Both the position numbers and the translations under genes were made by a program. Below, piece by piece: positions 8,210 to 9,372 of a DNA stretch of 64,000 nt. The notes beneath the pieces are model-generated. The model had not been told where the DNA came from. It made no database searches and was given only the letters and a program-made list of their open reading frames with translations. The stretch comes from Shigella phage sb3. Location of the stretch: the sequence record PQ666541. One strand, 5' to 3'. Position 1 is the first letter of the stretch, and every line of letters begins with the position of its first letter.

Positions 8210-8773
8210 TTATTTACCTAGTTTAGTTATTATAGCTTCGGCAGCAGCTTTTAGCTTAGATGCGGTGTTAATACGATTTTTAATTTCAGTATACGCATCG
8301 CCAAGAACATCAAGGCTATCAGAATAAACACTTACACTATTGCGTTCGCTATTTGAAATAGAACCTTTAGTTTTACGATCAAAATCGGTGTACACGTCTT
8401 GAAGATCACGGGCTGCCTTCTTTGCATCATCCAATGCGTCAAGAGCTTTATTTAAAGCATTAACATATTTTTTAGTGTCAAACATATTCTTAGAAATTTT
8501 AACAGGTGCACGTTCAGGAGTAGCTAATGCAGATTTAGGAACCTGAGCGCCAGATGCCAGTTTCTTAGAAATTTTGAAAAATGCTTTATTGAATTTATTT
8601 TCTTGACTCATCGTAAAAGAACTATTATCGATGTTGTACATTTCAATAGCTTTAGCTTTCCACTTAAGAAAATCGCCGCGGTCTTTTGGGTCTAATTGGA
8701 AGAATACTTTAGTAAGATCTGCTTCAGATGGTAATTTTGCTGCTTCGGTTAAAAATTCGGCATAGGTTTTCAT
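8210..8773 (-). CDS. internal-protein-like head protein with capsid-targeting sequence
   Basis: N-terminus MKTYAEFLTE followed by AA (capsid-targeting sequence plus LTE protease site); 187 aa, charged. Confidence 0.7.
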   Translation of the reverse strand: MKTYAEFLTEAAKLPSEADLTKVFFQLDPKDRGDFLKWKAKAIEMYNIDNSSFTMSQENKFNKAFFKISKKLASGAQVPKSALATPERAPVKISKNMFDTKKYVNALNKALDALDDAKKAARDLQDVYTDFDRKTKGSISNSERNSVSVYSDSLDVLGDAYTEIKNRINTASKLKAAAEAIITKLGK

Positions 8774-8863
8774 TTAAAATCCTTGAAATAATTTATCGGT
8801 TGGTTATTAATTATTTATTACTTTGTTATTATCCGTAACAGCATTCTATATGTGATTCAAACT

Positions 8864-8892
8864 AAAAAGCCCCAACCTTTCAGTCGGGGCTA
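8864..8892 (-). terminator. rho-independent terminator
   Basis: Plus aaaaagccccaacctttcagtcggggc; on the minus strand a GC stem followed by UUUUU; nearly the same element as 9425-9450. Confidence 0.6.
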
Positions 8893-8898
8893 AGAATG

Positions 8899-9372
8899 TT
8901 ATTTGATTTGTTTAGCAGACCAAATGCGGTCTTTAATAATTTTTTGGATGTCTTCAACATACTCAAGAGAGTGAACATGTGGATTATCTTTGAAACTATA
9001 AGCACGGGCTAACTTTTGGCCTTCGGTTTTGATTACTAAAAGCTCTTTAAGGATAGCTTCATATTTAGAGATAATTCCTTTAACGATATTTTTTTCTTGT
9101 GCCGCTTTAGGATCTGCTTTAGGAGCAGGTTTACCCGAAGGCTTTGCAAAAGCAGCGCCAGTAGCAACTAAACTTTTCCAGGCCATACTAACTGCATTTC
9201 CCGTAAATCCTTCTGCTTTCATGTCGCGAGCAAATTGGAATCGTGATTCGTCAGAAGCATCTTTATAGGAATATTTACCCGCTGCAATGGCTGCTTTTGC
9301 GACAGCTTGAATTTCGGTGCTAGATGCTTCATTTAACACCGCTTCATTTAAAAATTGAGCATATGATTTCAT
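8899..9372 (-). CDS. internal-protein-like head protein with capsid-targeting sequence
   Basis: N-terminus MKSYAQFLNE followed by AV; 157 aa. Confidence 0.7.
   Translation of the reverse strand: MKSYAQFLNEAVLNEASSTEIQAVAKAAIAAGKYSYKDASDESRFQFARDMKAEGFTGNAVSMAWKSLVATGAAFAKPSGKPAPKADPKAAQEKNIVKGIISKYEAILKELLVIKTEGQKLARAYSFKDNPHVHSLEYVEDIQKIIKDRIWSAKQIK

Follow-up and report, generated by a model that had tools for sequence, protein, structure and literature searches.

Two adjacent open reading frames (ORFs) of Shigella phage sb3, ORF1 and ORF2, very probably encode previously unrecognised internal proteins (Ips) of the T4 type, judging from their sequences. Both are on the minus strand of a 64,000-nucleotide stretch of the phage genome (sequence record PQ666541), referred to here as the window. 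ORF1 (187 amino acids; 8210..8773) is a candidate internal protein of the RB14ORF136 family and ORF2 (157 amino acids; 8899..9372) one of the RB32ORF133c/fD1 g140 family. An earlier note on this DNA had described two neighbouring genes with capsid-targeting N-termini and an L-x-E protease site; both genes are present where it placed them, and every residue mapped as important in such leaders is kept. The leader, the cleavage motif, the expression signals, the physico-chemistry, the cassette polymorphism and the purifying selection can all be observed directly. Packaging, cleavage and injection of the two proteins are likely, and a role against restriction is proposed tentatively, by analogy. 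For the whole chain, that is, packaged internal proteins acting against host restriction, we estimate a probability of about 45%.

ORF1 begins MKTYAEFLTEAA. Its capsid-targeting leader MKTYAEFLTE (8744..8773, minus strand, read from the sequence) is followed by AA and has L-T-E ending at residue 10, with a predicted cut by the prohead protease gp21 after E10 (MKTYAEFLTE/AA; a slash marks a predicted cut). ORF2 begins MKSYAQFLNEAVLNEA, and its leader MKSYAQFLNEAVLNE (9328..9372, minus strand, read in the same way) carries two L-N-E sites of the gp21 type, ending at residues 10 and 15 (E10 and E15; MKSYAQFLNE/AVLNE/A). According to mutational work on IPIII, targeting depends on positions 4 and 7 and processing on positions 8 and 10 (PMC9026906, summary there). 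Both ORFs retain Y4 and F7 for targeting, and L8 and E10 for cleavage, L8 fitting the L/I-x-E rule. The features by which T4-type Ips are recognised are present in both: Tyr/Phe4 with Phe7 (MKTYAEF in ORF1, MKSYAQF in ORF2), and (L/I)-x-E at positions 8-10 and, directly after it, a small residue (L-T-E/A in ORF1, L-N-E/A twice in ORF2). T4 IPII and IPIII begin MKTYQEFIAE/A. When the leader motif M-[KLE]-[TSFE]-[YF]-x-[EQ]-F was scanned against the six-frame translation of the window, it occurred at exactly four places, all four of them true ORF starts: ORF1, ORF2, an Ip4-like gene and an Ip5-like gene. The specificity of the motif in the window is far above chance.

The leader is kept in homologues with mature parts just 27-34% identical (the P0027, JS98, Mosigvirus and Karamvirus proteins) and in proteins of Klebsiella and Yersinia phages whose only part in common with ORF2 is the N-domain. 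The forms encountered in the JS98-like homologues and in related genes of Mosigvirus, Karamvirus, Winklervirus and other phages include MKTYNEFLNE/SVLNE/A, MYTFNEFLAE and MLKFKEF..SE. Because Y/F4, F7 and (L/I)-x-E are retained while the remainder is less than 35% identical, the comparison argues for selection on the leader peptide, not on the DNA. The ORF2 leader (window 9328-9357) exists in a long form, FLNEAVLNE, with two gp21 sites, and a short form, F-LTE, with one; in a comparison of the window with the alleles of loci L005, L008, L009 and L013, those without the insertion of 4-5 residues have a single gp21 site. The extended leader E(S/A)(V/I)LNE/A is also present on unrelated Ips of neighbouring loci, e.g., MKTYSEFLSESILNEA and MKTYQEFIAESILNEE, and this recurrence suggests that leaders are exchanged between ip genes. 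The ribosome-binding site and the first 11 codons form a 42-nt direct repeat, D2 (8742-8783 versus 9341-9382, 76% identical), and D2 together with the terminator repeats described below gives each cassette conserved ends.

Late-gene signals precede both ORFs. The consensus T4 late promoter TATAAATA is matched at 9413..9420 (minus strand), 41 nt upstream of the ORF2 ATG, and a near-consensus form, AATAAATA (7/8), is matched at 8812..8819 (minus strand), 39 nt upstream of the ORF1 ATG. A terminator scan located intrinsic terminators after ORF1 (8183..8201, minus strand) and after ORF2 (8868..8891, minus strand). The earlier note was correct in assigning each gene its own terminator and one of them a late promoter, to which ORF1 adds its 7/8 match. 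Another terminator (9427..9450, minus strand; terminator scan and repeats) ends the rnaC/rnaD/tRNA transcription unit and serves as the boundary repeat on the upstream side of the ORF2 cassette; in all, the region has five terminator-like sites where 1.4 would be expected. A terminator repeat of 40 nt flanks the genes in three copies. Copy 1 (8168..8207), 60% identical to the reference copy, is the right-hand junction in T4, RB32, RB51, and fD1; copy 2 (8855..8894) separates the ORF1 cassette from the ORF2 cassette; and copy 3 (9414..9453) is 88% identical to copy 2 and appears in the RB32 annotation under the description "34 bp imperfect direct repeat".

Cassette states were read by BLASTN of the e.8-rnaC interval between phages, and all four of them are natural. 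T4 has neither gene (window 8201 joined to 9418), RB32, RB51, and fD1 have ORF2 alone (8193 joined to 8861), RB14 has ORF1 alone (8894 joined to 9414), and both genes are present in the window, in pSs-1, Bas36/Paracelsus and ECML-134, and in several IMG/VR genomes. Since every junction falls within one of the three 40-nt copies, the cassettes are self-contained, each reading as a promoter, a ribosome-binding site, a CTS-bearing ORF (CTS, capsid-targeting sequence) and a terminator; the terminator repeats are likely to be the substrates of recombination. This presence/absence polymorphism resembles that of other ip loci. The T4 interval from e.8 to rnaC has no annotated gene, and it is this gap that ORF1 and ORF2 occupy in the window; T4 ipII and ipIII are located between denV and e, a site that is geneless in the window. 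For these reasons e.8-rnaC is a third site of CTS-bearing genes, beside the ipI locus and the denV/e locus. The locus was rightly called hypervariable at the outset, but it is not a classical ip locus.

The predicted mature proteins are small and basic: 177 amino acids, 19.6 kDa and an isoelectric point (pI) of 9.54 for ORF1 after E10, and 142 amino acids, 15.5 kDa and pI 9.59 for ORF2 after E15. Neither contains cysteine, and the same is true of IPI*, IPII*, and IPIII* (pI 9.0-9.65). The genes are also non-essential, being missing from T4, RB14 or RB32. AlphaFold2 predicts a common architecture, namely a disordered leader, a three-helix N-domain, a disordered linker and a long antiparallel hairpin. 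In ORF1 these are a small three-helix domain at residues 17-73 (8555..8725, minus strand; predicted local distance difference test score, pLDDT, ~70-84), a Lys/Pro/Ala-rich linker at residues 74-99 (8477..8554, minus strand; pLDDT <50) and a C-terminal antiparallel helical hairpin at residues 100-186 (8216..8476, minus strand). In ORF2 the corresponding parts are the three-helix domain at residues 18-71 (9160..9321, minus strand), which allele comparison showed to be variable with three allelic types, the Lys/Pro/Ala linker at residues 72-87 (9112..9159, minus strand), and the helical hairpin at residues 88-154 (8911..9111, minus strand), nearly invariant between alleles. The linker is lengthened to long AKP-like repeats in the JS98 and Mosigvirus homologues of ORF1.

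The two bodies, first taken to be unrelated, turn out to share this architecture and are probably distant paralogues in one modular family. Both match PHROG 2280, annotated "unknown function", over their full length (2.8e-53 for ORF1, 8.1e-61 for ORF2). With the leader columns removed, hhalign aligned the ORF2 family with the ORF1 family at a probability of 76% (E 2e-5, 96 columns). The P0021 and P0022 proteins of Klebsiella and Yersinia phages combine an ORF2-type N-domain with a C-domain bearing a "DTPDLY" motif otherwise found in the JS98/Mosigvirus branch of the ORF1 family; BLASTP of their C-domains against ORF1 was not significant, and profile comparison alone gave moderate support. The paralogy is proposed, with moderate support, because the family profiles align, the architectures are alike and P0021/P0022 mix both types.

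Pairwise ratios of nonsynonymous to synonymous substitution rates (dN/dS) between ORF2 alleles are 0.07-0.22, and these are therefore real coding genes. The C-terminal hairpin is almost invariant (dN 0.03-0.05), and the N-domain falls into three deeply diverged allelic types (dN 0.20-0.36, dS saturated). Allele age is uncoupled from the flanks: between the window and locus L005, dS is 0.16 in e.8 but ~0.9 in ORF2. Loci L011 and L013 have near-identical C-domains (dS 0.08) yet different N-domains (dS 1.4), which indicates, at the level of sequence comparison, intragenic recombination around the linker. The pattern would fit a constant module to which a swappable specificity module is joined. 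In several phages ORF2 is frameshifted in an A7 run at codons ~93-95 (window 9089-9095, T7 on the plus strand). Such alleles stop just past the linker and keep the leader, the N-domain and the linker, as in P0017 (111 amino acids, SfPhi01), P0020 (108 amino acids), and P0062 (97 amino acids, G28/T4_ev240), and the tblastn match of ORF2 is split in two pieces in fPS-65, ECO4, G28, EC128, and ph0021. Either sequencing error or a real truncation or phase variation may account for the frameshift.

By tblastn, 164 phage records contain ORF1 and 511 contain ORF2, and every match listed for either gene is annotated "hypothetical". Among the named cluster members, one UniRef entry, a Klebsiella phage homologue, is called "Internal head protein". 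Bas36, Bas39, Bas42, Bas46, and Bas47 carry these genes, and related genes exist in Mosigvirus, Karamvirus, Winklervirus and other phages, with distant relatives in Mosigvirus, Dhakavirus, Karamvirus, and Klebsiella phages. An exhaustive phmmer search with mature ORF1 against 1.84 billion representatives yielded one true distant relative, P0027, which is 29% identical to mature ORF1 and begins MITFNEFLNE/SEMINE/A. The e.8-adjacent positional homologues of JS98-like phages (loci L010 and L012) are 27% identical to ORF1 and 34% to P0027. P0027 is encoded on a metagenome contig (L004; SRR28624380_555336, 1419-2526) outside the e.8-locus context; its gene adjoins one with ART-PolyVal and DUF3990 ADP-ribosyltransferase domains, and a T4 30.3-like gene is nearby. 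In RB69 (L017, 11429-11991) the overlapping RB69ORF148c and RB69ORF149c together make up one ORF1-family gene, split in the reference through either a frameshift or a sequencing error.

Scans of ORF1 and ORF2 with Pfam, NCBIfam, and PADLOC gave nothing above threshold, and sequence search found no relative of either in the PDB. Foldseek comparison of both AlphaFold2 models with the PDB, and of ORF2 with BFVD, returned generic helical matches (E > 0.8) and, for ORF2, its orthologues. Against IPI-III, Ip4, Ip5, Ip7, Ip9, and the annotated RB69 head proteins, hhalign and BLASTP found similarity in the leader only and none of the mature regions; Ip6, Ip8, and Ip10-13 were outside this comparison. 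The earlier view that the bodies are unlike T4 IPI, IPII, and IPIII is borne out by these alignments, and the profile and structure-prediction searches it had called for revealed no homology of the mature parts to known structural proteins. A kinship of ORF1 with IPII, suspected from their alike ends (AAAEAIITK and AAIEAAKAIK), was unsupported by hhalign. Nothing relevant to the locus tags RB32ORF133c, RB51ORF140, and ar1_137 turned up in the literature, and in the supplements of Silas et al. the leader sequences of ORF1 and ORF2 were not found, neither gene being evident among those tested there.

Evidence from particles concerns ORF2 alone and comes from Yersinia phage fD1 (HE956711), which has the ORF2 cassette only and whose g140 is 97% identical to ORF2. 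In the mass spectrometric proteome of fD1 particles (PXD026812), g140 was scored as particle-associated at the strict threshold. The Ip4 orthologue g129 was scored as well, and the neighbouring e.8 (g139) was not. The listing of g140 supports expression and co-purification, short of proof of encapsidation; a processed g140 would begin with the peptide AVLNEASSTEIQAVAK or ASSTEIQAVAK.

We propose that late transcription of each gene starts from its own TATAAATA-type promoter and that the N-terminal CTS of 10-15 residues would bring the product into the prohead's scaffolding core, where gp21 would cut the leader off after L-x-E. The basic mature protein (19.6 or 15.5 kDa) would then be embedded in the packaged DNA and injected along with it. 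In the new host it may bind and neutralise an early-acting defence, most likely a modification-dependent type IV nuclease, GmrSD- or McrBC-like. Target specificity would reside in the variable N-terminal three-helix domain, and the conserved C-terminal hairpin with the Lys/Pro/Ala linker would have a shared role, for instance association with DNA or co-ejection. Precedents for the last step are known. Ip1 inhibits GmrSD of E. coli CT596, Ip2 the BREX-embedded GmrSD of ECOR21, and Ip3 the two-gene GmrSD of ECOR17 (PMC12373910), and Bas37_0260, an Ip at the ipI locus, inhibits McrBC (bioRxiv 10.1101/2025.11.20.689424). All four of the Ips with a characterised function inhibit type IV restriction, and they are unrelated to one another outside the leader (PMC12373910; bioRxiv 10.1101/2025.11.20.689424). 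Given the results for Ip1-3 and Bas37_0260, an anti-defence role appears more plausible than it did in the classical literature.

Several points weigh against the proposal as a whole. When ip4-10 were tried against 15 GmrSD groups, no reproducible new pair emerged (PMC12373910), and for this reason Ip status is no guarantee of a GmrSD target. The curators of the RB genomes named Ip4, Ip5, Ip7, and Ip9 yet kept the present genes as "hypothetical". The late promoter of ORF1 is not a full match, the confidence of the AlphaFold2 models is moderate (mean pLDDT 75 for ORF2 and 69 for ORF1), and their structural neighbours are uninformative. The specificity of the fD1 preparation is low, since DenV, lysozyme e, and NudE were likewise scored as particle-associated and 672 host proteins were present. 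The main rival explanation accepts packaging and assigns the proteins a physical role, in charge neutralisation, DNA condensation or ejection, or the scaffolding core, with no specific host target. The basic nature of the mature proteins, the growth of the Lys/Pro/Ala linker into AKP-like repeats in the JS98/Mosigvirus homologues, and the DNA phosphate contacts made by lysines of T4 internal proteins (PMC3012670) are in line with such a role, as are the very strong purifying selection on the C-terminal hairpin and the lack of a reproducible GmrSD phenotype for Ip4-10. However, natural phages do without one or both genes (ORF1 and ORF2 are both missing from T4, ORF2 from RB14 and ORF1 from RB32), every characterised Ip has a specific target, and three diverged N-domain alleles on a constant C-domain fit a specificity module better than a bulk counter-ion. 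A purely physical role is unlikely on balance.

An injected effector with a target other than restriction, be it another defence system or host takeover, compares with the packaged ADP-ribosyltransferase Alt. Alt is packaged by a CTS-type signal and aids T4 in evading Mokosh type I (bioRxiv 10.1101/2025.11.20.689424). ORF1 and ORF2 show no similarity to the characterised inhibitors and no PADLOC match, and their family spans genera with different DNA modifications (Mosigvirus, Dhakavirus, Karamvirus, and Klebsiella phages). Their predicted small, all-helical form without an enzymatic domain or a conserved catalytic motif speaks against this explanation, as does the uniform precedent of type IV inhibition, and we regard it as improbable. 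It is very improbable that the proteins are not packaged at all and that the shared 5' end is a recombination or translation-initiation module of late proteins that stay in the cytoplasm. The D2 repeat does span the ribosome-binding site and the leader codons, and recombination-prone repeats do form the cassette boundaries, but it is the leader peptide that is conserved, with different codons, in homologues of 27-34% identity, the precise targeting and cleavage residues are kept, and the ORF2 orthologue was found in fD1 particles without its neighbour e.8. The preferred reading thus remains that of packaged internal proteins directed against host restriction. A broader version of it is possible, if rather doubtful: a widespread two-domain superfamily of injected proteins at an e.8-rnaC hotspot of Tevenvirinae, with a swappable "specificity" N-domain, a constant linker-hairpin "delivery" module and targets outside the range of Ip1-3, either new subtypes of type IV nuclease or a different class of defence.

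That T-even phages carry CTS-bearing internal proteins at hypervariable cassette loci is well known. What is new is the assignment to the Ips of two widespread families that are "hypothetical" even in the curated RB genomes, a third hotspot, and the modular design with an exchangeable N-domain. T-even Ips have lately come to be seen as a toolbox of specific injected type IV restriction inhibitors, and the screens so far concern only named Ips at the classical loci. Both of the present families occur in hundreds of sequenced Tequatrovirus phages of the therapeutic type, and their status as Ip candidates provides a short testable list for work on host range and anti-defence. A variable N-domain on a constant C-domain could also explain how specificity evolves.

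The window is 98.7% identical to Shigella phage pSs-1 and is matched by 621 phage records, mainly of E. coli and Shigella phages. Its gene order is that of T4, all on the minus strand: vs, denV, e, nudE, e.2-e.8, the tRNA cluster, tRNA.2-4, the ipI locus, 57B, 57A, and gene 1. The Ip4-like protein MKTYKEFIAE/AA (2698..3171, minus strand; named from the RB32/RB51 annotation) has its own TATAAATA at 3206-3213 and is encoded just downstream of denV (positions 2698-3171 and 3181-4151). The Ip5-like protein (11653..11910, minus strand; phrog_3499, internal head protein, and RB32/RB51 annotation) belongs to the classical ipI locus. With this Ip4-type gene downstream of denV instead of ipII or ipIII between denV and e, the genome therefore has four CTS proteins (Ip4, ORF1, ORF2, and Ip5), none of them shared with T4. 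Between ORF2 and tRNA-Arg, positions 9418-9770 are 92.7% identical to the T4 rnaC/rnaD region (species 1 and 2 RNA), which an Rfam scan of the window missed because Rfam has no family for these RNAs. The tRNA cluster (9767-10598) consists of ten genes, for Arg, Asn, Tyr, a CAU-anticodon tRNA, Thr, Ser, Pro, Gly, Leu, and Gln, without the segB homing endonuclease, whereas T4 has eight tRNAs and segB; the CAU-anticodon tRNA was called Met here and is Ile in the T4 annotation. The program-made e.8 ORF (7706-8023) has 105 amino acids from an upstream ATG, against 87 in the T4/PHROG family. Because the family match covers only residues 19-105, the true start of e.8 is probably at 7969.

Among known injected proteins, T4 IPIII is close to ORF1 in several respects. 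The leaders are almost identical (MKTYQEFIAE and MKTYAEFLTE), mature IPIII (183 amino acids, 20.4 kDa, pI 9.65) compares with mature ORF1 (177 amino acids, 19.6 kDa, pI 9.54), and both lack cysteine and are products of non-essential late genes. However, the hhalign alignment is confined to 25 columns, which comprise the leader and the residues immediately following, the locus is denV-e in T4 and e.8-rnaC here, and the architecture of three helices, linker and hairpin is not predicted for IPIII. T4 IPI is loaded into the head by an N-terminal propeptide, processed, basic and injected, and its gene is a cassette at a hypervariable locus, properties seen or predicted in ORF1 and ORF2 as well. IPI differs in having a 19-residue leader of another subtype (MKTFKEF...ITE) and no sequence similarity to either protein, and, in contrast to the all-helical prediction for ORF1 and ORF2, its fold comprises two beta-sheets with flanking helices (PMC3012670). 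IPII has the same type of leader and a basic mature protein, but it is 100 amino acids long, is encoded at another locus and aligns over the leader alone.

The Dar proteins of phage P1 (DarA, DarB, and Hdf) are likewise packaged in the head, injected and anti-restriction, which makes them an analogy only, since phage, packaging signal and targets (type I restriction-modification) are all unrelated. Closer are Ip4, Ip5, Ip7, and Ip9 of the RB phages and T2/T6, CTS-bearing cassettes between repeats, of which Ip4 and Ip5 exist in this genome; their mature regions have no BLASTP similarity to ORF1 or ORF2. These four reportedly belong to the Repoila et al. 1994 series. Bas37_0260 was recognised as an Ip solely by its N-terminal signal and is unrelated to IPI-III, as are the proteins described here. 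It is encoded at another locus. Its inhibition of McrBC shows that further CTS-bearing proteins can be directed at restriction enzymes not targeted by the Ips known before.

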